42,639 bases of DNA from Ilumatobacteraceae bacterium (lineage in GTDB: Bacteria; Actinomycetota; Acidimicrobiia; Acidimicrobiales; Ilumatobacteraceae), in contig DAINND010000001.1 of the NCBI GenBank assembly GCA_036736065.1, positions 16,676 to 59,314 on the forward strand. The letters are read 5' to 3'. Under the pieces are notes generated by a model. That model made no database searches and had not been told where the DNA came from. It was given only the letters and a program-made list of their open reading frames with translations. Shown piece after piece: positions 16,501 through 42,639 of the stretch; the stretch's first letter is position 1; the number at the start of each line of letters is the position of its first letter. Made by a program: the position numbers and the translations under genes.

Positions 16501-16946
16501 CGAGTGATCGGGCCGTCGGCCGCTGCATCACCACCCATCACGAGCACCCGACCGCAGAAGCCGTGGATCGTCGCGATCGTCGCCGCATCGAAGTCGTTGA
16601 TCGCCGCCCGGAGCCGCTCGACGCGCACCCGGCGCTCGGCAGGGTCGGCCCCTGCTGCCACTGCCCCGACGACGTCGTCGGCATCGTCGTCACCAGCCTC
16701 GAGCGCCGCCGCGACCTCGACGAGGCGCTGACGGACCCTGCCGCGCAGTTCGGCCGTCGCCGCCTCGGTGAAGCTGACGATGCACAGGGATGACACCGGG
16801 ACTCCGAGCTCGGCCACGTAGCGCACCGCCAGAGCGCTGAGCGCGTAGGTCTTGCCGGTGCCGGCGCTCGCCTCGAGCACGGTCAGGCCCTCCGGCAAGG
16901 CGCCGGTCAGATCGAAGGCTGCCCGCTCAATCATGTCGATCGACAT
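13596..16946 (-). CDS. recB: Exodeoxyribonuclease V beta subunit RecB (UvrD-type helicase plus PD-(D/E)xK nuclease)
   Basis: Motifs present are EASAGTGKTY, LIDEFQDTD, VHRAKGLEFP and YVALTRAR. The C-terminal nuclease motif is GSIDLV...WVADYKTN. The ORF is 1116 aa. Confidence 0.92.
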   Translation of the reverse strand: MSIDMIERAAFDLTGALPEGLTVLEASAGTGKTYALSALAVRYVAELGVPVSSLCIVSFTEAATAELRGRVRQRLVEVAAALEAGDDDADDVVGAVAAGADPAERRVRVERLRAAINDFDAATIATIHGFCGRVLVMGGDAAADGPITRSSSDVDEVVNDLLLTCAGPGGDEVVPGTPGLELTDAVAPTRLASGVRARLRLPDAVMWRPDDPAPVPETAGAAARTAVDAERAKVRISRAAADLVERAHGMVADRRTRAKRRSIDRIVVDARDLVLRPGSSGLVAALRQRYRVVLIDEFQDTDRVQWDLFRHVFVGGPDAPAVVLVGDPKQSIYRFRGAELEAYLDAVAHADSVQTLQRNWRSDAPVLHGLESLLAGVTFGSDDVEFQPVEAAPGREEWRLETAGSIVAAPVEVRIVPRHGDTLTAPTARRAIIADVVRTIAGLLDGGARITGSDGASTEVRPRDIAVLTRSNAEASASVAALAAAGIAAASSGATSVTETPAWDEWRRLLVALERPGSSSAVRSAAVGWFGGLTLADLDALDDAGVADLHERFRSWAALVASRGIPALLAAARAAGLQRRLLARHGGARDLTDIEHIAELLQGSTGGRPTPAGALRRVLDEPHAFGDSDDSDSLTSRRIDRDDDAVQVLTVHRAKGLEFPIVLCPFLWSAGAPPKQVEHADLDGRRTIASAWVADASPKSAAGLQAAITAEKQGEQRRVTYVALTRARHSCIVWWAPLLDRHTSVLGDILGAAAGIGHRPTELADLRPIADRASGAVAVSEVAPAMRVRRTGGVSAAPLEVASTDRVLDPAWRIWSFSAIKAASEGLEHDRPVVGGADEPVAFGDAAEVDEAPITTVPGPLATAPGGTEFGTLVHQVLEEVDFTSATLVDALAERCALALRHRSLRIGADELAAGLAAAVAAPLGGPLGATRLADLAPAQRLNELVFDLPLGRLTSSDIGAVLVDHLPADDPLLGWARALAGGQAQVDLEGMLTGSIDLVARTADGRGFWVADYKTNQLGRDSAYGPADLVVAMEHHDYPLQAALYLVALHRFLRWRLPAYEPDRHLLGAAYLFVRGMVPSPPSASSVQAPGVFWWRPPASAVVALDRLFASGVAR

Positions 16947-19900
16947 CCTTCGGAGCGGGGCCGATCAGACGCATCGTCCGCACGAAGGTCCCGCCGATGC
17001 GCTCTGCCCATCGTTCGAAGCGTCCACCGCTCCCCCACGCCGGGCCGCCTTCATCGTCTCGCGGTTCGAGCGCCAGCAACTCGTCGAAGCGGAGCGTGCC
17101 GAATGCGGCGATCACGGCAGCATCGTCGCCGTCACCCTTGCTGAACTCGCCGCCGTCGCCCCATTCCTTGGCAGCGGCCTTCGCTGAGCCCGCGACGAAC
17201 GCCAACGAGGTCTTCGGGAAGAACGGGATCGCGTCGCGCAACGACCGTCGGTGCAGGTCGACGATCAGCTCGAGCACCCCGGCTGCGGCAGCCGGGTCGC
17301 CGAGCTCGTACTGCTCGACCGCCACGCCGGCCTTGGTCGTGGTGGTGCCGATGAGGACGTACTGCCAGAGTTGGTCGGGACGCACAGCCGAGACTGCGAG
17401 GAGGTCGAGCCACGCCGAGAGGCGGCGCTTGTCGGAGATCTGCGACACCGATGCATCGACGAGCAGATGGCCGTGGGCACGGTCGACCCGACCGTGCACG
17501 AGCGTGGGGCCAGCGCAGAGCACCTCGATCTCGACCGAGGAGGCCACCGCAGGAACACCCGCCATCGACAACGTCGCCTCGACGAGGCGGTGGACCGCCG
17601 CCGCTTGCTCGGCGAGGGCACGGGCGACGTCGTCGCCGTAGCGGAACGGTGGCAGGGCGCCCGACGCGCGGAACACGTCGAGACGATCGTCAGCCGCCCT
17701 GTCGGCGGCATCGGGCGACGTCGCCAGCCGCGCCGCGAGCACCTGGTCGGCGAGCTTCCACCGGTCGAGGCCCGCAACGGCCAGGGGCACCAGTTCCTCC
17801 CGGGCCCCAGCAGCTCGCTCGGTGCTGAGGCCGAGCCGGTCGCTCAGTAGGGCCTCGAGAGGAGTGCGCAGGCTCCGACGCAGGTCGGCCAGTGACACCG
17901 TGTCGGTCTCGGCCGCACGGAGTGGGGCCCCGAGCGGCGGTGGGGGCGGGTGCTGCAGACGGCGCTGCTCGGCTGCAGCACGCGCGCCTGCATCGAAGCT
18001 CCACGGCCCCTCGACGCCGAGCCGGCCCGGGACGAAGTTCGGCTCGGACCACGCCTGGCGCGGATGGTCGACCGAGATGGCCTCGCGCAGGCTCCCGGCA
18101 GCGGCTCGAAGGCCGTCGACGGGCGGCGTCGCCGTCGCATCGATGAGGTCGGCGAGCTCGGCGAGCACGACCGATGGGGCGACCTCGGCGTTGGTGGCGA
18201 GATCCCGACCGGTGCTGCACAGCACCAGGTGCTCACCTGCGGCCAGCACGGCGTCGAGCAACTGGGCGCGCACCTCCGATCGGGCGTCACGGTCACCGAC
18301 GCACGGCGCCTGGGCCGTCAGGTCGTCGGCCGACGATGCCCCTGCAGCCCCGAGCTCACCGTCGAGGCCGAGCAGGCACACGACCGGGTACGGGATGCCT
18401 CGCTGGGCCGTGAGCGACGAGACGGTGACGGCCCCGGTGCCGAACCGAGGCCGACCGGGGCGACCGGAGAGCTGCCCGGACAACAGCGCTGCCAACTCGT
18501 GCGGGTCGATCGGGTGCAGGTGCGCCGATCCGCTCGCGAGCGCCTCGTCGCGCACCGCGCCGAGCTCGGCTTCGAGCAGCTGCCACTGCCAGCTGTCGGC
18601 GTCGTCGAGTGAGCAGAGCGACTCGGCGGTGGCCAACAGCGCCTCACACCACTCGACCGGGTCGGAGGTGCCGAGGAGCCGATCGACCGCTGCGGCGACG
18701 AGGTCGACGAGCTCGGCGCGCGCGCCGAGCAGGATCACATCGTCGCCCTCGAGGTCGCCGTAGGGCACCACACCTCCCGCGCCGAGGCGGTCGCCGCGGT
18801 CGGCGACCGCCGCGCCGAGCAACAGTTGGTCGAGCCCGGCACGCCAGGTGTTGGCGGTGTAGGTGGACGGGAGCCCGAACCCACCACGATGCTCGGCGTC
18901 GAGGCCCCAGCGGACGTGGGTGGCCTGGGCCCACGCAGAGAGCCGTCCGACCGCATCGAGGGTGAGCCCGAAGCGACGGCCCACCGGCGGGTGCAGCGCC
19001 AGGCCGAGCACGTCGCCCGCACGGAAGCGGCCGTCGAGCAGGTCGAGCACGGCGAGCACGGCATCGAACAGCGGCACGTCACGGCGCAGCGAACGGTCGG
19101 CGACGCGCACAGGGATCGCTGCCAGTGACCCACCGGGCCCGTCACCGGCGAAGACCGCCTCGACGAGCGGGGCGGCGGCGGCGACGTCGGGGCAGAGCAC
19201 GACGATGTCGCGAGGATGCAGGCGGGGCTGACCTGCCGCGTCGCGCTCGGCCAGCAGCCGCACCACGACGTCGCGCAGCACCTCGACCTGTCGGCCGAGG
19301 CCGTGGCAGCGGTGCCACTGGACCGACCGGTCCGACTGCCCGCTCGGCGCCGGAGCCGGCGCGTCGGGCGACGCGGGGTCGACGTCGAGGCGGATCGCTC
19401 GCTGGAGACGCTCGAGGAGGGTGCCGTCGGCAGCCGGCGGTGGCCCCTCGACCTCGACGATGGTCGCCCCGGCCCCCATCGCCGCGGACAGCAGGCCCAG
19501 GTGAGCCTCACGAGGTGAACGCGCCCAGGTGCGGCTGAGCGGATGGGTGATGACCGCCGCGGTGACGTCGTGGGCGCGCAGCACGGCGAGGGCGGACGCG
19601 TCGCGCGCTGCCGGGTGGAGCCGGCGCCACCACATGAGGCTCGGCACCGGCGCGAGCACGTGCACCTGACGGTGGGACGCGAGCGCCTGGAGGACGTCGA
19701 GGTGCGGCGAGGGCAGGCCCGCCACGCCGAACACGACGAGGCGCTCGGGGAGATCGGCCGGAACCATGCCTGCGCGCACCTGCTCGACGAGCGCCGCGGT
19801 GCGCGACGCAGGGCTCTGGCTCCCGATGCGCTCGCCGAGCAACCGCCAGAGCCGGGGCTGCCAGCGCGCCGAGGCCGGCAGCGCCTGGCCGTCGACCCCG

Positions 19901-20340
19901 AGGTCGTGCCCCCGCTCCCACGCGTGGACCATCTCGACACGATGCAGGCCGTAGCGGTCGAACAGGTCCGCGATCGCACGCGCCCTGGCCAGCTCCGGGA
20001 CGAGGCCCAGCTCGTGGCGTTCGGTGTGCAACAGGTCGTGGACGACCCACGTGAGCGGGCCGATCGCCCATGGGTCGCTCTCGTCGGTGAGGCCGAGCGC
20101 CCTGCGCACGAGCGAGCCGGGGTAGACCAGCTCGACGTTGGCGACGATGCCGTCGCCCACCTCGTCCGCCGATGCGCCGAGCGACCTGGCGAGCCGGTGG
20201 ACCAGCCACGTGCGCACGCCGTCGCCGGGCACGGCCACGAGGTCGCGTGCGAACGGGTCCGACGGGACGGCGCTCAGCACCTCAGCCGCCTCGGCGGCGA
20301 GGAGCTCGAGACGCTCGGCGACGACGAGCCGCATGCTCAT
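16927..20340 (-). CDS. recC: Exodeoxyribonuclease V gamma subunit RecC
   Basis: 1137 aa ORF immediately upstream of recB, overlapping it by 20 nt. The N-terminus (LVVAERLELLA...DPFARDLVAVPGDGVRTWL) and overall length fit RecC. The gene order recC-recB-recD is the canonical one. Confidence 0.85.
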   Translation of the reverse strand: MSMRLVVAERLELLAAEAAEVLSAVPSDPFARDLVAVPGDGVRTWLVHRLARSLGASADEVGDGIVANVELVYPGSLVRRALGLTDESDPWAIGPLTWVVHDLLHTERHELGLVPELARARAIADLFDRYGLHRVEMVHAWERGHDLGVDGQALPASARWQPRLWRLLGERIGSQSPASRTAALVEQVRAGMVPADLPERLVVFGVAGLPSPHLDVLQALASHRQVHVLAPVPSLMWWRRLHPAARDASALAVLRAHDVTAAVITHPLSRTWARSPREAHLGLLSAAMGAGATIVEVEGPPPAADGTLLERLQRAIRLDVDPASPDAPAPAPSGQSDRSVQWHRCHGLGRQVEVLRDVVVRLLAERDAAGQPRLHPRDIVVLCPDVAAAAPLVEAVFAGDGPGGSLAAIPVRVADRSLRRDVPLFDAVLAVLDLLDGRFRAGDVLGLALHPPVGRRFGLTLDAVGRLSAWAQATHVRWGLDAEHRGGFGLPSTYTANTWRAGLDQLLLGAAVADRGDRLGAGGVVPYGDLEGDDVILLGARAELVDLVAAAVDRLLGTSDPVEWCEALLATAESLCSLDDADSWQWQLLEAELGAVRDEALASGSAHLHPIDPHELAALLSGQLSGRPGRPRFGTGAVTVSSLTAQRGIPYPVVCLLGLDGELGAAGASSADDLTAQAPCVGDRDARSEVRAQLLDAVLAAGEHLVLCSTGRDLATNAEVAPSVVLAELADLIDATATPPVDGLRAAAGSLREAISVDHPRQAWSEPNFVPGRLGVEGPWSFDAGARAAAEQRRLQHPPPPPLGAPLRAAETDTVSLADLRRSLRTPLEALLSDRLGLSTERAAGAREELVPLAVAGLDRWKLADQVLAARLATSPDAADRAADDRLDVFRASGALPPFRYGDDVARALAEQAAAVHRLVEATLSMAGVPAVASSVEIEVLCAGPTLVHGRVDRAHGHLLVDASVSQISDKRRLSAWLDLLAVSAVRPDQLWQYVLIGTTTTKAGVAVEQYELGDPAAAAGVLELIVDLHRRSLRDAIPFFPKTSLAFVAGSAKAAAKEWGDGGEFSKGDGDDAAVIAAFGTLRFDELLALEPRDDEGGPAWGSGGRFERWAERIGGTFVRTMRLIGPAPKDVDRHD

Positions 20341-20450
20341 GGTCGATGACCTCGGAGCGACACTGCACGTGTGATGACCACCTCCCCAGCCTAGAGAGGG
20401 GGTGTGGCACCGATTGGCGGAGTCGACGCCCGAGCGGCCAAGGTAGCCAC

Positions 20451-36158: not shown

Positions 36159-37883
36159 TCAGCGCCGGGCCAGGGCCACCGGCACCGCCGCACCGACCTG
36201 TTCGGCCGCCTGCTTCGCGTGGTAGCTCGAGCGAGTGAGCGGGCTCGCTTCGACGTGCCCGATGCCGAGCGCTGTGCCCGCCGCGGCCCAGTGCGCGAAC
36301 TCGTCCGGCTCGACCCAGCGAGCCACGGGCAGGTGGTGCGAGGTGGGCCGCAGGTACTGGCCGATGGTGACGATGTCGACCCCGACGGCGGCGAGGTCGG
36401 CCAGGCAGCCCACCACCTCGTCCGCGGACTCGCCCATGCCGACGATGCGGCCCGACTTGGTGGTGAGGCCGGCCGCCTTCGCGCGTGCGAGCACGCCGAG
36501 CGACCGCGCATAGCCGGCCGAGGGGCGCACGGCACGCTGCAACCGCGCGACGGTCTCGATGTTGTGGTTGAGCACGTCGGGGCGGGCCGCGAACAGCAGT
36601 TCGAGCGACGTCGGATCGCCCTTCGCGTCGCTGATCAGCGTCTCGATGCGGGTGCGCGGCATCCGCTCACGGATCGCCGCGACGCACGCAGCGACATGGG
36701 CCATGCCGCCGTCGGCGAGGTCGTCGCGGGCCACCATGGTGAGCACGGCATGGTCGAGACCCATCCTGGCCACCGCCTCGGCGACCCGAGTCGGCTCGTC
36801 GGCTGCGGGGGCCTCGGGGCGCTGCGTGTCGACCAGGCAGAACCCACAGGCCCTGGTGCAGCGCTCGCCGAGCACCATGAACGTCGCAGTGCCGTCGGCC
36901 CAGCAGTCGCTCAGGTTCGGGCAGCCGGCCTCCTCGCAGACGGTCACCAGGCCGAGGTCGCGCACCGTCTGCTTCAGCTGCAGCACGCCAGCGCCGTGCA
37001 CCACCTTCGGCCGCAGCCAGTCGGGCTTGCGGGCCGCGATGGCCAGCCCGCCGGTGACGCCGGCCTGGTCGAGCCTGCCGAGCAGCCGCGCCGGCACGGT
37101 GCCGTGATCGGCTGCCGAGCGGACGGGGGCACCGGCACCGAGGCCCCGCGAGAAGGCGGACAGGTCGTCGGGACGGTGCTTCCACGCCACGTCCTGACGT
37201 TCGACGGCGCCGTCGGCCCAGATCGTCGCGGCGTGACGGACGAGCACGTCGACCACTGTCTGCATCGGCACGTCGACGCCCTCTTCGGCGAGCGAGGTGA
37301 CCGGCTTGTCGGCGATGCCGCACGGCACGATGTGCTCGCGCATGTAGGTGAGGTCGGGGTGCACGTTCAGTGCGAACCCGTGCATCGTCCGCCCGTGCGC
37401 CAGCCGCACCCCGATCGCGCAGATCTTGCGCGGCGTCGGCCCACCCACACCCACCCACACCCCGGGGTACTCGCTCAGCACGCCGACGTCGTCGAGGCCG
37501 AGCTCGCCCAGCGTGCGGACCACGACCTCCTGCACCGCGGCGACGTGCTGGGCCGCGCCCAGGCTGTTCGGCACGCTGAGCACCGGGTAGCCCACCAGCT
37601 GGCCCGGGCCGTGGTAGGTGACGTCCCCGCCGCGCTTGACCGCCACGAGCTCGGCGCCGACGGCGTCGGGGTCGCAGCGCAGGTTGCGTTCGAGCTCGGT
37701 GCGCGGACCGTAGGTGAACACGTGCGGATGCTCGAGCAGCAGCAGGTGCTGCTCGGACCCGTTGTCGAACAGGCCCTGCTGGAGAGCCAGCGCCTCGCGG
37801 TAGGGCACGGAGCCGAGCCAGCGGGCCCGCAGGGGCCCGATCACGGCGTCGCGCTCGGCGTCAGAGCTCGGCGTCCCACTCAC
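36159..37883 (-). CDS. lipB/lipA: Fused octanoyltransferase LipB / lipoyl synthase LipA (single 574 aa ORF)
   Basis: Residues 1 to about 235 are LipB (LLLLEHPHVFTYG, RGGDVTYHGPGQLVGYP, RKICAIGVRL, HGFALNV, IVPCGI). Residues from about 263 to 574 are LipA (CEEAGCPNLSDCW, CTRACGFC, RDDL.DGG, HNIETV, GMGE, TIGQYL, RSSYHA). The frame is the same throughout with no intervening stop. Confidence 0.85.
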   Translation of the reverse strand: MSGTPSSDAERDAVIGPLRARWLGSVPYREALALQQGLFDNGSEQHLLLLEHPHVFTYGPRTELERNLRCDPDAVGAELVAVKRGGDVTYHGPGQLVGYPVLSVPNSLGAAQHVAAVQEVVVRTLGELGLDDVGVLSEYPGVWVGVGGPTPRKICAIGVRLAHGRTMHGFALNVHPDLTYMREHIVPCGIADKPVTSLAEEGVDVPMQTVVDVLVRHAATIWADGAVERQDVAWKHRPDDLSAFSRGLGAGAPVRSAADHGTVPARLLGRLDQAGVTGGLAIAARKPDWLRPKVVHGAGVLQLKQTVRDLGLVTVCEEAGCPNLSDCWADGTATFMVLGERCTRACGFCLVDTQRPEAPAADEPTRVAEAVARMGLDHAVLTMVARDDLADGGMAHVAACVAAIRERMPRTRIETLISDAKGDPTSLELLFAARPDVLNHNIETVARLQRAVRPSAGYARSLGVLARAKAAGLTTKSGRIVGMGESADEVVGCLADLAAVGVDIVTIGQYLRPTSHHLPVARWVEPDEFAHWAAAGTALGIGHVEASPLTRSSYHAKQAAEQVGAAVPVALARR

Positions 37884-39471
37884 GGGTCTCGAGGATCTCC
37901 TTGACCTTCACGAGGAACCCGGCCGCATAGGCGCCGTCGAAGGCCCGATGGTCCCAGCTCATCGCCAGGTTGCCGACGGGATGGATGACGATCGCCTCAC
38001 CACCGTCGGGCAGCTTGGCCACCACGGGCTTGCGCACGATCGCGTCGGTCGAGATGATCGCCACCTGCGGCTGGTTGATGATCGCCATCGTCAGCACACT
38101 GCCGGCCGATCCGTTGTTCGAGATCGTGAAGGTGCCGCCCTGGATCTCGTCCGGGCTCAGCTTGCGGCTCCGGGCGCGTCCGGCGAGGTCGTTGATCTCG
38201 CGAGCGATGGCCCGCAGGCGCTTGGTCTCGGCGGCGCGCACGACCGGCACGAGCAGGCCCTGGAAGTCGAGGTCGACGGCTACGCCGATGTCGATGAAGT
38301 GGTGCACCACCAGGTCGTCCCCCTGCACGCTCGCGTTGAGGTGTGGGAACTCGACGAGCGCATCGACGATGGCCCGGGTGATGAAGGGGAGGTAGGTGAG
38401 GCTGAAGCCCTCGGCCTGCTTCCACGACTGCTTCACCCGGCTGCGTGTGGCGTCGACATTCGCGTAGTCGACCTCGACCACGCTGAAGGCGTGCGGGCTC
38501 ACCGACTTGCTCATCACCATGTGGCTGCCGGTGAGGCGGCGGATCTTGCTGAGCGGCACGACCGTGTCGCGTGCTCCCGAAGCATCGGCGGTCGCCGGTG
38601 CAGGTGCTGGTGCCGGGGCTGGCGCAGGAGTCGGAGCGGGTGCAGGAGCTGGTGCCGGGGCGGGTGCAGGAGCAGGCGCAGGAGCCGGAGCAGGCGCAGG
38701 AGCCGTCGAGCCACCCAGGCGATCGATGTGGTCGAGCACGTTGTCGCGAGTGATCCGGCCCCCCGGTCCGGTGCCGACGATGTCGTCCGGATCGAGCCCG
38801 TGATCGGCGACCAGACGGCGCACCACCGGCGACAGGAGCCGGGCATCCCCGCCGGCGGTCTCGCTTCCGGCCGGCTCGCCGCCGCCTGCAGCAGGCTCCG
38901 GGCTCGGCGTCGCGGCATCGCCGTTGCGGGTGCGCGACGAGCGGGTGAAGCCCGCAGCCTCGGCGGCGGCGTCCGATGCGAAGTACACCTCGGCGACGGT
39001 GACCTCGTAGTGCTGGCTCTCCGTGGTGTGGTAGAGCATCGAGTTGACGTTGCCCTTCACGGGGAAGCCGGCCGGGGCCGAGCCGTCGGCGAGTGGGAGC
39101 GCCGATCCCGGCCACTGGCCGGTGCCCGCTGCCTGCGCAGGAACGGGCTCGGGAGCCGGAGCAGGTGCAGGCTCGGGGGCCGGGGCCGGCTCGGGAGCCG
39201 GAGCGGGAGCAGGTGCAGGAGCCGGAGCAGGTGCGTCGGCGCTGCCCACGACGGCGATCACGGCGCCGACGGGAACGGTGTCGCCCTCCTGGGCGAGGAT
39301 CTGCAGCACCGTGCCGGCGATCGGCGAAGGCACCTCGGTGTCGACCTTGTCGGTGCTCACCTCGAACAGCGGCTCGTCGGCCGCCACGGCGTCACCCACC
39401 TTCTTGAACCAGCGGGTGATCGTTCCCTCGGTGACGGTCTCGCCCAACTGGGGCAGGGTGACGTCGGCCAT
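37861..39471 (-). CDS. sucB: Dihydrolipoamide acyltransferase E2 (lipoyl domain - linker - extra module - E3-binding domain - linker - catalytic domain)
   Basis: The lipoyl domain has EVSTDKVDTEVPSP. The PSBD is LLSPVVRRLVADHGLDPDDIVGTGPGGRITRDNV. The catalytic core has SWDHRAFDG. GGAGAA lies upstream of ATG 39471. Confidence 0.92.
   Translation of the reverse strand: MADVTLPQLGETVTEGTITRWFKKVGDAVAADEPLFEVSTDKVDTEVPSPIAGTVLQILAQEGDTVPVGAVIAVVGSADAPAPAPAPAPAPAPEPAPAPEPAPAPAPEPVPAQAAGTGQWPGSALPLADGSAPAGFPVKGNVNSMLYHTTESQHYEVTVAEVYFASDAAAEAAGFTRSSRTRNGDAATPSPEPAAGGGEPAGSETAGGDARLLSPVVRRLVADHGLDPDDIVGTGPGGRITRDNVLDHIDRLGGSTAPAPAPAPAPAPAPAPAPAPAPAPTPAPAPAPAPAPATADASGARDTVVPLSKIRRLTGSHMVMSKSVSPHAFSVVEVDYANVDATRSRVKQSWKQAEGFSLTYLPFITRAIVDALVEFPHLNASVQGDDLVVHHFIDIGVAVDLDFQGLLVPVVRAAETKRLRAIAREINDLAGRARSRKLSPDEIQGGTFTISNNGSAGSVLTMAIINQPQVAIISTDAIVRKPVVAKLPDGGEAIVIHPVGNLAMSWDHRAFDGAYAAGFLVKVKEILETREWDAEL
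38590..38706 (-). repeat. (Ala-Pro)n linker-coding low-complexity repeat (E2 linker 2)
   Basis: Encodes APAPAPAPAPAPAPAPAPAPAPTPAPAPAPAPAPA. The DNA shows imperfect GCN-CCN hexamer periodicity. Confidence 0.85.
39136..39234 (-). repeat. (Ala-Pro)/(Glu-Pro) linker-coding low-complexity repeat (E2 linker 1)
   Basis: Encodes APAPAPAPAPAPEPAPAPEPAPAPAPEPVPA, directly after the lipoyl domain. Confidence 0.85.
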
Positions 39472-39496: not shown

Positions 39497-40906
39497 TCAG
39501 GCGTTCAGGGACCGGCCGGTGAGCGACAGCACGGTCTCTCCGAACAACTCGGTCAGGCTCGGGTGGGGTTGGATGAACTCGGCGACCTCGGCGACGGTGG
39601 CCTCCCAGTTGACCGCGAGGTAGCCGCCGCTCAACTGCTCGGTCACCCACGGGCCCACCATGTGGACGCCGAGGATCTGGCCAGCGGTGCCGTCGGGGTT
39701 CTTCTTCGCGATCACCTTCACCAGACCGTCCGTGTCGCCCAGGATCTGAGCGCGGCTGTTCGCGCGGAACTGGTGCTTGGCGACCACCACGTCGTGGCCG
39801 GCGGCCTTGGCCGCTTCCTCACCGGGGCCGGCCCAGGCGACCTCCGGATGGCAGTAGATGGCCCACGGCACGCGGTCGTAGTCGACCGGCGCGGGCCGCT
39901 CGCCGAGGAGGTGCTTGGTGACGAGGATCGCCTCCGCATAGCCGACGTGGGCGAGTTGCGGGGTGTTGATGAGGTCGCCGATGGCGTAGACGCCGGGCTC
40001 ACCGGTGCGGCAGTACTCGTCGACTTCGACGTAGCCGCGCTGGTCGACCTTCACCCCGGTGCCCTGCAGGCCGAGCTCGTCGGCGTAGGGGCGCCGGCCG
40101 ACGCTCACCACGACGGCGTCGACCTCGCGCGACTCGCCGTCGCCGAAGTGCACCACGGTGCCGCCCGCAGGGGTGGGCGTGTGCCCGGTGACCTTGACGC
40201 CGGTGCGGATGTCGATCTTCTTCTTCTTGAAGCTGCGCACCACCACGTTGGCCACGTCGGCATCGCGGCCGGGCAGGCTCTTGGGCATCCCCTCGAGGAT
40301 GGTGACCGCTGCGCCGAGGTCGGCGAAGGTGCTGGCGAACTCGCATCCGATCGCCCCGCCGCCGATGACGGCGATGCGCGGTGGCACGCGATCGAGCATG
40401 AGCACCTCGTCGCTCGTCATGATCGGCCCGCCGACCTCGAACCCAGGGATGGTGCGCGGCACCGAGCCGGAGGCGAGCAGCACATGGCGGCCGCGCAGCG
40501 AGGTGCTGCCACCTTCGTTGAGCCGCACGTTCACCGTGCGCTCCGCACCCAGCGAACCGGTTCCAGCCAGGATCGTGATCTTCTTCGACACCATGAACCC
40601 GGTGAGGCTCTTCACGATGCCGTCGACGATCTTCTGCTTGCGCGACTGCGACACGGCGAAATCGACCGTGGGGGCGCTCGAGGTGATGCCGAACTCGGAC
40701 GCGTGGGCGACGTGGCGGTGCACAGCAGCCGTCTCGAGATAGGCCTTCGCCGGGATGCAGCCGCGGTTGAGGCAGGTGCCACCCATGCTGCCCTTCTCGA
40801 CGATGGCGACCTTCAAGCCGGCGGAGGTGGCGTAGAGCGCAGCGCCATAGCCACCTGGGCCACCACCGATGACGACCAGGTCGAACTCGGTGTCGGCAGT
40901 GTCCAT
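39497..40906 (-). CDS. lpdA: Dihydrolipoyl dehydrogenase (E3)
   Basis: Reads DLVVIGGGPGGYGAA, the redox disulfide GGTCLNRGCIPAK, a second GxGxxG in VIGGGAIGCEF, and the C-terminal HPSLTE interface motif. GAGGAG lies upstream of ATG 40906. Confidence 0.93.
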   Translation of the reverse strand: MDTADTEFDLVVIGGGPGGYGAALYATSAGLKVAIVEKGSMGGTCLNRGCIPAKAYLETAAVHRHVAHASEFGITSSAPTVDFAVSQSRKQKIVDGIVKSLTGFMVSKKITILAGTGSLGAERTVNVRLNEGGSTSLRGRHVLLASGSVPRTIPGFEVGGPIMTSDEVLMLDRVPPRIAVIGGGAIGCEFASTFADLGAAVTILEGMPKSLPGRDADVANVVVRSFKKKKIDIRTGVKVTGHTPTPAGGTVVHFGDGESREVDAVVVSVGRRPYADELGLQGTGVKVDQRGYVEVDEYCRTGEPGVYAIGDLINTPQLAHVGYAEAILVTKHLLGERPAPVDYDRVPWAIYCHPEVAWAGPGEEAAKAAGHDVVVAKHQFRANSRAQILGDTDGLVKVIAKKNPDGTAGQILGVHMVGPWVTEQLSGGYLAVNWEATVAEVAEFIQPHPSLTELFGETVLSLTGRSLNA

Positions 40907-41001: not shown

Positions 41002-41442
41002 TCACCCGGGCCGCACGAGCGACCAGCGTCGCACGTCTTCGCCACGTCGCACCACGAGCACGCGCACACCATCGGTCGGCGCAGCCGAGGTGTCGTAGCG
41101 CAGGGTGCACGTCTGCTCGGCCACGGTGGTGGCCCGGCAGCCTGCCGGATCGTCGCCAGGGTCCACCGGCGACAGCAGGTCGGAGGTGAGCAGGGTGAAG
41201 GCATCGAACCCCCGGGGGTCCTCGACGCCCGAGGTGCGGACCTCCACCTCCATCAGCCCGTCACCTTCGGCGGCCGACAGCACGGTGATCCGCAGGTCTC
41301 CGGCCTGCGCGGTGTCACCGATCGCGAAGGTGACCGAACCGGTCTCGTTCGCCCCGTCGAGGCGCAACAGCCAGAAGCCCCCGGCGACGAGGATCACGAG
41401 CCCGCAGGAGACGGCGAGCAGCAGCAGTGTTCGGGTCCGCAT
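41002..41442 (-). CDS. Small membrane-anchored/exported hypothetical protein
   Basis: The N-terminal signal-anchor is MRTRTLLLLAVSCGLVILVAGGFWLL. A domain of about 120 aa follows, with two Cys residues. No family was recognised. Confidence 0.6.
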   Translation of the reverse strand: MRTRTLLLLAVSCGLVILVAGGFWLLRLDGANETGSVTFAIGDTAQAGDLRITVLSAAEGDGLMEVEVRTSGVEDPRGFDAFTLLTSDLLSPVDPGDDPAGCRATTVAEQTCTLRYDTSAAPTDGVRVLVVRRGEDVRRWSLVRPG

Positions 41443-41477: not shown

Positions 41478-42101
41478 GTGCGTCGGTCCCGTGCCCTCAC
41501 TGCGAGCCTGGTCGCCGTGCTCGGCCTCGCTGCTGCAGCGTGCGGCGACGAGACGGCGGTCGAGTCCGCCGGGCTCGCCACCACGGCGCCGCCGACGATG
41601 GCCACCGCCACCACTGCGGCGACGGGGTCGACCGATCCGGCCACAACGGATCCGGCCAGCACCCCGCCGGCCACCGAGACGCCTGCCGTCGCGGCGCCGG
41701 AGGCGTTGCGCTTCACCGCTCCACTCGTCGGTGGCGGCACCTTCGACGGGACGACCGTGGCCGGCAAGCCCGTCGCGTTCTGGTTCTGGGCGCCTGGTTG
41801 AGGCACCTGCAACCGGGAAGCCCCCTCGGTCGAGGAGGCAGCGAAACGGTGGGCCGGCCAGGTCACCTTCATCGGCGTGGCCTGGATCGGCGACGACGAC
41901 TCCTTCCAGGGGTTCATCGACCGTCACGGGCTCACCTTCCCCGTGATCAGCGACGACCCGGGTGACGTGTTCGCCCGCTTCGACATCGCCGGTCAGCCGG
42001 CCTTCGCCGTCGTGGGCACCGATGGCGAGGTGCAGCAGCTGCTCGGCGCCGTCGACGACGAGATCATCGACGACGTCCTCACCGGCGTCGTCGGGAGCTG
42101 A
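41478..42101 (+). CDS. TlpA/ResA-like thioredoxin-fold lipoprotein with an in-frame TGA (41799-41801) at the first Cys of the CxxC motif: candidate selenoprotein (alternatively a nonsense pseudogene)
   Basis: Track ORFs 41478..41801 and 41877..42101 share one frame. The read-through product has lipobox LGLAAAAC and a Thr/Pro-rich linker. It continues KPVAFWFWAPG-TGA-GTC-NREAPSVEE...VTFIGVAW...GLTFPVISDD...FDIAGQPAFAVVGTDGEV. Confidence 0.55.
41806..41835 (+). other. SECIS-like stem-loop immediately downstream of the in-frame TGA
   Basis: The upper stem ACCGGG (41812-41817) pairs with CTCGGT (41825-41830), with one G-U pair. The loop is 7 nt, AAGCCCC. The lower stem is CCT.C (41806-41810) with G.AGG (41832-41835). 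The loop G lies about 20 nt from the TGA. Confidence 0.35.
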
Positions 42102-42150: not shown

Positions 42151-42639
42151 TCAGAGGCCCTGGCGGACCGCCTCGGCGCAGGCGAAGGACGCTTCGTTGG
42201 CCGTGATGTCATCGTCGTTGTACCAGTTCTTGCCGAGCAGGCACTCAGGTGCGATCAGCTCGTAGGGCACCTCGAACGAGTCGACCGCCCCGGCAGCGAC
42301 AAGACCGATGATGCAGGGCTGCGCCGCGGTCACCGCAGCGACGAACGACGCATCGTCCATCATGTAGACCGCGCCGAGCACGTAGAGCTCAGCCACCCCG
42401 CACTCGGGGTGGCGCACCGGAACCGGCACCAAGCTCGGGTCGACGCTGCCGTCGGCCATGCCTGCCTGGAGACAGCCGATCGCCGCCGCCGGATCGCCGA
42501 GAGCCGTGCACGCGTTGTACGCCCCGAAGTCGACATCTGTGTCGAAGCCTTCGGCGCCCTCCTCGATGATCAATGGCTCGTCGATCGATCCCCCGAGGCC
42601 GAGTGGCAGCAGACCGAAGCTGCCCTCGAAGGAGTCGAT
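42151..42639 (-). CDS. Cys-rich hypothetical protein, C-terminal part (5' end beyond the window)
   Basis: The minus-strand frame is open from the window edge (IDSFEGSFGLLPLGLGGSIDEPLIIEEG...). The track M at 42573 is an internal TTG. Six Cys residues occur in about 140 aa. No family was recognised. Confidence 0.5.
   Translation of the reverse strand: MDSFEGSFGLLPLGLGGSIDEPLIIEEGAEGFDTDVDFGAYNACTALGDPAAAIGCLQAGMADGSVDPSLVPVPVRHPECGVAELYVLGAVYMMDDASFVAAVTAAQPCIIGLVAAGAVDSFEVPYELIAPECLLGKNWYNDDDITANEASFACAEAVRQGL

Follow-up and report, generated by a model that had tools for sequence, protein, structure and literature searches.

The stretch of DNA analysed here (referred to as the window) comprises 42,639 nucleotides (nt) from an Ilumatobacteraceae bacterium (assembly GCA_036736065.1, contig DAINND010000001.1, positions 16,676 to 59,314). 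Near its end lies a gene for a thioredoxin-fold protein that an in-frame TGA appears to cut in two. In a preliminary description of this DNA, the gene was proposed to encode a thioredoxin-fold lipoprotein with selenocysteine (Sec) in a UxxC redox motif and with a selenocysteine insertion sequence (SECIS) just behind the UGA. Direct reading of the frame bore out that the segments 41478..41801 and 41802..42101 are in phase and that the TGA at 41799-41801 is the sole interruption, within the local motif FWFWAPG-[TGA]-GTC-NREAPSVEE around codon 108. Comparison with related sequences supported the core of the proposal. From the sequence evidence set out below we consider it very probable that 41478-42101 is a real selenoprotein gene and that its UGA at 41799-41801 is recoded as Sec (Table 1). 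As such, the gene is a previously unannotated UxxC thioredoxin-fold selenoprotein, a kind that is already known.

Read through the TGA, with Cys in place of Sec, the product matched the Pfam families AhpC-TSA (PF00578, 52.1 bits, cut-off 26) and Redoxin (PF08534, 48.4 bits, cut-off 26.6), PF00578 being its best Pfam match. The gene thus encodes the intact TlpA/ResA-type redoxin that had been claimed for the read-through product. Alignment to the CPFC and CPTC motifs of Mycobacterium tuberculosis MPT53 and DsbF confirmed that the TGA sits at the nucleophilic first Cys. The fold downstream is undamaged, again as described before: the QPAF sequence of the cis-proline loop (residues 173-176) is kept, with Q, P and A invariant in our alignment A1, and the GC contents at codon positions 1/2/3 behind the TGA (0.72/0.43/0.93) give a coding signature like that of the rest of the window.

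The protein starts with MRRSRALTASLVAVLGLAAAAC, followed by a Thr/Pro/Ala-rich stretch. Equivalent N-termini in homologues read ...LL(S/A)A(T/S)AC or ...LIAAC, and the tether that follows differs among homologues in both length and sequence. The lipobox and the Thr/Pro-rich tether of the preliminary description were therefore found again on reading the sequence. From the presence of a signal peptide and a lipobox, we predict export of the product and its lipid anchoring through Cys22 at the outer face of the membrane.

For the comparison with relatives we scanned one genome per GTDB species, which yielded at least 565 relatives confirmed by tblastn. The 80 best loci of these, together with the window, formed the DNA comparison set of 81 sequences. 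Almost all of the 80 loci come from Ilumatobacteraceae, Ilumatobacter or Acidimicrobiia metagenome-assembled genomes (MAGs), at 55-77% amino-acid identity. The preliminary description had suggested asking whether orthologues keep the TGA, whether conservation continues behind it and whether Cys and Sec forms share the column. The TGA was present at the identical codon in 81 of the 81 sequences, which is far beyond chance. Mean diversity at codon positions 1/2/3 was 0.28/0.23/0.44 over the 30 codons before the TGA and 0.21/0.22/0.40 over the 65 codons after it. This pattern is alike on either side and shows no downstream decay in relatives, indicating that translation continues through the TGA. 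Moreover, the six codons directly 3' of the TGA (xxCNRE) vary synonymously, including CGN/AGA exchanges at Arg, and in the codon of the resolving Cys, three codons behind the TGA, positions 1 and 2 are invariant while the third allows TGC or TGT. No part of the protein is better conserved than the stretch with this Cys, from the TGA to the next possible start. With selection and synonymous variation continuing past the TGA, a pseudogene is excluded and a split gene is implausible.

In the 70 loci with a match to the motif, the residue before the Sec was Thr in 56, Trp in nine, Gly in two, Tyr in two and Phe in one, and in none of them was the Sec followed by Pro. The window itself has Gly (G-U-G-T-C). 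Cys forms read W-C-x-x-C, versus mostly Thr before the Sec in the Sec forms; a shift in the residue before the nucleophile thus seems to accompany the switch from Cys to Sec. One MAG, MFD09779.bin.2.222, carries the Sec gene on two contigs (L033 and L062), both with W-U-S-T-C, which could be true paralogues or reflect strain heterogeneity in the bin. Another locus, L066 (CAVYIO010000007.1), lies in a MAG labelled Rhodothermales (Bacteroidota relatives), while all other loci are from Actinomycetota; here mis-binning of the contig or horizontal transfer could account for the label.

Bacterial SECIS elements have been modelled as hairpins with an apical loop of 3-9 nt, an upper stem of 4-16 base pairs (bp), a G in the first two loop positions, a distance of 16-37 nt from the UGA and a minimum free energy of -7.5 kcal/mol or lower (PMC13188914). 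When this model was applied downstream of the UGA, as had been suggested for this locus, every constraint was satisfied by a hairpin within the codons for A-P-S-V-E-E-A, with a 4-nt loop that starts with GG, 4+3 bp, a distance of 26 nt from the UGA and an energy of -10.1 kcal/mol. Its stem has eight positions, in which one internal C.A mismatch separates the 4 bp of the upper stem from the three pairs beyond.

The evidence for this hairpin comes from the comparison of the 81 sequences, which align without gaps. RNAalifold predicted a single helix, identical to the stem given in Table 1. Paired bases occupied 89.4% of the stem cells, versus 34-61% when the 3' arm was slid by 1-3 columns, and 35 stem cells carried double changes; the observed values were reached by none of 500 shuffles. 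At alignment columns 39-48 we counted 62 CG, 16 UA and 3 UG pairs and no broken pair (Fisher 3e-14), and at columns 36-51 there were 67 CG, 8 UA, 3 UG and 2 GC pairs with one broken (Fisher 7e-9). Both pairs join third codon positions on both sides, and the combination C.A occurs at neither of them in any sequence. On a neighbour-joining tree calculated with the hairpin masked, the states at these two wobble-wobble pairs required at least five and at least eight branch-coincident changes per column. Since paired changes recur on the masked tree, the covariation is not one inherited event. The loop and its closing pairs are formed by the Ser and Val codons, which read UCG GUC without any wobble diversity throughout the 81 sequences, and the invariant apical UCGGUCGA falls within the conserved peptide motif EAPSVE.

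Of the SECIS proposed earlier, the presence of such an element behind the UGA stood, in that a conserved and covarying hairpin fits the model, whereas its place and shape did not: the element lies at 41820-41839 and has a GGUC loop. The stem-loop originally named, which we read as 41812-41817/41825-41830 with the 7-nt loop AAGCCCC, had no double changes and equalled its shuffles, one of its pairs was unpaired in 56 of 80 sequences, and it competes with the conserved helix. A scan of the window and the loci for other genes with a UGA and a GGUN-loop hairpin recovered 79 of the 81 known sites and returned 21 extra matches, none of them with a coding signal on both sides of the UGA.

We then turned to public protein sequences. 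A whole-database protein search gave 111 matches, which with seven cluster members made up a set of 118 proteins. Gene calls ending exactly at FWFWAP[T/Y/F], the last residue before the TGA, accounted for 99 of them. Eleven (P0004-P0014) were full-length Cys forms with W-C-x-x-C, and none of the 118 was a full-length entry annotated with Sec. Three more full-length matches, P0001-P0003, seemed to carry Trp or Leu at the site. Public gene callers report an N-terminal ORF (open reading frame) of about 115-130 amino acids (aa) and a second one of 72-74 aa; in all public gene calls inspected, the gene was split or mistranslated. Cys homologues thus share the column with Sec, and one of them, P0004 (L087/L088), is a syntenic orthologue that has TGC at the site within the same gene neighbourhood. 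In this TGC orthologue the hairpin has decayed (-2.9 kcal/mol), and in a more distant Cys form (L089) it is absent.

Several ways of reading the TGA without Sec have to be weighed against these results. If translation ended there, the locus would produce a short lipoprotein and a separate C-terminal fragment (for example from the GTG at 41877), or the truncated product only. This matches the annotation by public gene callers, but from the TGA to the next start run 25 codons that rank among the best conserved at the protein level (xxCNREAPSVE). They vary with a third-position bias that includes the CGN/AGA exchanges at Arg, and they include the resolving Cys. Neither active site nor signal peptide would be present in a fragment that begins at 41877, and the N-terminal piece on its own matched no Pfam domain; we therefore regard termination as highly improbable. 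A pseudogene, or a TGC or TGT misread in sequencing or assembly, would be compatible with a lone in-frame stop in one window, and one contig (described below) has TTA at the site. Such an accident is refuted by the identical TGA in 81 of 81 independent assemblies that span 55-77% amino-acid identity, by the intact downstream sequence and by the adjacent conserved hairpin with its compensatory changes, and we assign it virtually no probability. The same holds for a genome-wide reassignment of TGA to Trp or Gly (code 4 or 25-like). In its favour, two JGI metagenome calls, P0001 and P0002, have Trp at the Sec position. For P0002, a real substitution was rejected: the underlying DNA (L086 246-905) carries TGA there, under translation table 11 the call does not yield the query, and its C-terminal tail is false, as the call continued past the genuine TGA stop. 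The Trp in P0002 is an artefact of a code-4 gene model, apparently chosen for the short contig, and the Trp in P0001 is probably a code-4 mistranslation as well. Nearly all likely genes of the window use TGA as their stop; thus the recoding is local and the code has not been reassigned.

What remains is near-cognate or suppressor decoding of the UGA as a standard residue (Trp, Cys or Gly), with the hairpin as a stimulator of read-through rather than a SECIS. RNA structures downstream of stop codons can stimulate read-through, and no sel gene or tRNA-Sec was found in the window or the related loci. Against this, the UGA falls precisely on the nucleophilic Cys of the CxxC motif, where Sec and Cys classically exchange, and the hairpin fits all SECIS constraints, including the G-G start of its loop. 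Furthermore, Trp or Gly at codon 108 would inactivate the redox motif, while the remaining active site is under strong purifying selection, and the lineage is documented as Sec-using. We consider this explanation improbable, and prefer decoding as Sec.

Some observations weigh against decoding as Sec. No tRNA-Sec was found by ARAGORN and Rfam in the window or by ARAGORN in the 80 loci, tblastn with the E. coli proteins detected no selA, selB or selD in the window and loci (1.19 Mb), and no Rfam family matched the window. The fold energy of the 81 nt from 41790 to 41870 was not unusual compared with shuffles (z = -0.11), and the hairpin overlaps the conserved peptide motif EAPSVE. P0003, from a 760-bp metagenome contig (L085 197-709), has TTA (Leu) at the Sec position. 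The fold z-score is uninformative in coding sequence of 70% GC; as the energy of the whole stretch is ordinary, the evidence for the hairpin is comparative and not thermodynamic. Owing to the overlap with EAPSVE, its conservation is partly at the protein level, and the only signals that do not depend on the protein are those from wobble positions and compensatory changes. In the TTA contig the hairpin is intact (-9.9 kcal/mol); the TTA is due either to an error in sequencing or to an inactivating mutation that arose very recently.

The missing sel genes and tRNA-Sec are expected if they are unlinked to the locus, and we infer the machinery of the source genome from its lineage. Ilumatobacter coccineus and I. 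nonamiensis are SelD+/SelA+/SelB+ (Peng et al. 2016, PMC5029168 Table S1), with 15 and 10 known selenoproteins, respectively, compared to 1-2 each in neighbouring Actinobacteria entries (PMC5029168 Table S2). In Actinomarina, which belongs to the same class, selA, selB, selC and selD occur in all 84 complete genomes (preprint 10.64898/2026.04.03.716425). These published sel genes indicate that the lineage decodes Sec. The 15 selenoproteins of I. coccineus may already include the present protein, and the remark in the preliminary description that selenoproteins are little discussed in actinobacteria has to be softened in view of the numbers for Ilumatobacter. ARAGORN also reported long tRNAs of 86-92 nt, called as tRNA-Met, tRNA-Trp or tRNA-Ala (L030 2914-3005, L041 6387-6478 and L074 11121-11206). 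As candidates for tRNA-Sec they looked spurious, the L030 and L041 copies lying inside coding sequence in GC-rich DNA.

To place the protein among known systems, we compared it with solved structures by sequence. The closest relatives were M. tuberculosis DsbE (MPT53, Rv2878c; 1LU4, 7.7e-25) and DsbF (Rv1677; 3IOS, 6.2e-23), with alignments of about 110-122 residues, while ResA followed far behind (5e-9). With MPT53 and DsbF the protein shares the context WFW-x-P-x-[C/U]-x-x-C-N/Q-x-E-A-P, the QPA(F/Y) cis-proline loop and an extracytoplasmic actinobacterial thioredoxin fold. It differs from them in the nucleophile, which would be Sec instead of Cys, in the long Thr/Pro-rich tether and in the surroundings of the nucleophile, where their W-C-P-x-C is replaced by Gly (window) or mostly Thr (orthologues) in front and no Pro behind. 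Within the TlpA/ResA-like fold, sequence similarity places the domain in the actinobacterial DsbE (MPT53)/DsbF branch. M. tuberculosis DsbE and DsbF have been reported to act as oxidases, and DsbF is annotated as a lipoprotein.

Known UxxC thioredoxin-fold selenoproteins include the Prx-like thiol:disulfide oxidoreductase, the Thiol:disulfide interchange protein and DsbA-like proteins (PMC1794560, PMC5029168 Table S3, PMC13188914). Like the first of these, the present protein combines PF00578 with a UxxC motif (UGTC here). The catalogue criterion is PF00578 plus UxxC or UxxU (PMC13188914), and such criteria alone would file the protein as a Prx-like thiol:disulfide oxidoreductase. The prototypes of the Prx-like and interchange proteins (including WP_010940744.1), which we could liken to it by description only, are from Deltaproteobacteria (Geobacter, Syntrophus), whereas the present clade is specific to Acidimicrobiia and groups with actinobacterial DsbE/DsbF. 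In overall design the protein also resembles the Rcas_1661 family of 'DsbG-like' selenolipoproteins (NCBIfam NF041057) with a thioredoxin-like domain and UxxC, so that exported selenolipoproteins are already known. It does not belong to NF041057, to which it scored 18.3 bits against a cut-off of 190, over residues 13-100 (signal and linker) only. Fold and membrane-tethered extracytoplasmic topology are shared with the cytochrome-c-maturation reductases Bacillus subtilis ResA, Bradyrhizobium TlpA and CcmG (DsbE). Unlike these, no ccdA, resB or resC adjoins the gene, and membership in the ResA family NF002854 was rejected (51 bits versus a cut-off of 170, E 1.5e-13). In NCBIfam release 20, no model reached its cut-off for the protein.

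Table 1. Features of the probable selenoprotein gene and of other genes in the window
Feature	Position	Strand	Remarks
Probable selenoprotein coding sequence	41478..42101	+	207 codons plus stop, Sec = codon 108; GTG start, true stop TGA 42099-42101
Predicted signal peptide and lipobox, MRRSRALTASLVAVLGLAAAA-C	41478..41543	+	Cys22 (41541-41543) is the predicted lipidated residue; read from sequence
Low-complexity Thr/Pro/Ala/Asp-rich tether between predicted lipid anchor and catalytic domain	41544..41696	+	read from sequence
Predicted thioredoxin-fold DsbE/DsbF (TlpA/ResA-like) domain, residues 74-207	41697..42098	+	Pfam match covers residues 75-187
UGA, probably recoded as Sec108 of the U-G-T-C redox motif	41799..41801	+	same column as the first CxxC Cys of MPT53, DsbF and P0004-P0014
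Resolving Cys111 of UxxC, codon TGC	41808..41810	+	Cys in 81/81 sequences
Putative SECIS hairpin, GCCCCCUC-GGUC-GAGGAGGC	41820..41839	+	stem 41820-41827/41832-41839, apical loop GGUC 41828-41831
G-Q-P-A-F loop with cis-proline Pro174	41991..42005	+	aligned with QPAF/QPAY of MPT53/DsbF
146-aa protein with N-terminal membrane anchor, no Pfam match	41002-41442	-	starts 35 nt from the selenoprotein gene, divergent
Cys-rich protein, no Pfam match	42151-42639	-	convergent; runs off the window end
E3/lpdA gene	39497-40906		beside E2
E2 acyltransferase gene	37861-39471		beside lipB-lipA fusion
lipB-lipA fusion, ORF of 574 aa, LplA-B_cat + LIAS_N + Radical_SAM	36159-37883	-	adjoins E2 and lpdA
Molybdopterin oxidoreductase, N-terminal Fe4S4 domain, 646 aa	9862-11802	-	class includes Sec-containing formate dehydrogenases

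The surroundings of the gene are conserved on its upstream, divergent side. The gene for the 146-aa membrane-anchored protein keeps its place and direction in 64 related loci; lpdA was found in 61, the E2 acyltransferase gene in 57 and the lipB-lipA fusion in 42. Related loci and shared gene order place the source organism in or near the Ilumatobacteraceae. In the 146-aa protein a CX9C pair is conserved, with Cys102 in 55 of 65 and Cys112 in 64 of 65 sequences; we speculate that it might be a substrate or partner of the selenoprotein. On the other side, no more than 22 of the 80 loci have the convergent Cys-rich protein downstream. Five of its Cys are kept in nearly all of the 22-23 loci with a homologue, and one more is kept in 14; again speculatively, the protein is a conceivable substrate of the selenoprotein. 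The lipB-lipA fusion joins a lipoyl(octanoyl) transferase to a lipoyl synthase and measures 561 aa in L083.

Two further places in the window were inspected for recoding. The molybdopterin oxidoreductase gene contains no in-frame TGA. At 17896-20349 on the forward strand, four successive segments in the same frame are separated by TGA only, with GC contents at the first codon position of 0.86-0.94. This is no recoded gene but a frame artefact, as it runs antisense to a recC-like gene (16927-20340, reverse strand).

Decoding as Sec would follow the standard bacterial SECIS mechanism. The ribosome would reach the UGA, the hairpin would recruit SelB with Sec-tRNA(Sec), and Sec would be inserted at codon 108 in place of termination; we infer selenium incorporation and SelB binding from the features of the sequence. 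The product of 207 residues would then be exported and lipid-anchored at Cys22, with the Thr/Pro-rich tether as a flexible link that holds the catalytic domain off the membrane. In the U-x-x-C chemistry expected for such a protein, Sec108 would attack a disulfide or thiol of the substrate, and a selenenylsulfide with Cys111 would subsequently be resolved. By analogy, the enzyme could work as an oxidase, as reported for DsbE and DsbF of M. tuberculosis, or as a reductase like ResA and TlpA.

Beyond the single gene, we tentatively suggest that the relatives could form a family that catalogues have not recognised: exported, lipid-anchored Sec-containing oxidoreductases of the DsbE/DsbF type, spread across Acidimicrobiia (at least 565 species genomes with relatives), with a lineage-specific SECIS in EAPSVE and the CX9C membrane protein as a fixed neighbour. 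This broader proposal is less likely than not to hold in full. The related loci were sampled from lakes, groundwater, soil and marine sites. A widespread lineage of Actinomycetota would place Sec in an extracytoplasmic enzyme of thiol-disulfide exchange akin to M. tuberculosis DsbE and DsbF. The systematic mis-annotation of the gene is fixable, and a SECIS-aware family model would mend it in hundreds of Ilumatobacteraceae genomes. With its clear covariation inside a coding motif, the hairpin offers a clean case of a SECIS that evolves under the joint constraints of protein coding and RNA structure. The syntenic Sec and Cys orthologues provide a natural pair of Dsb-type enzymes that bears on the benefit of Sec in an oxidising compartment.

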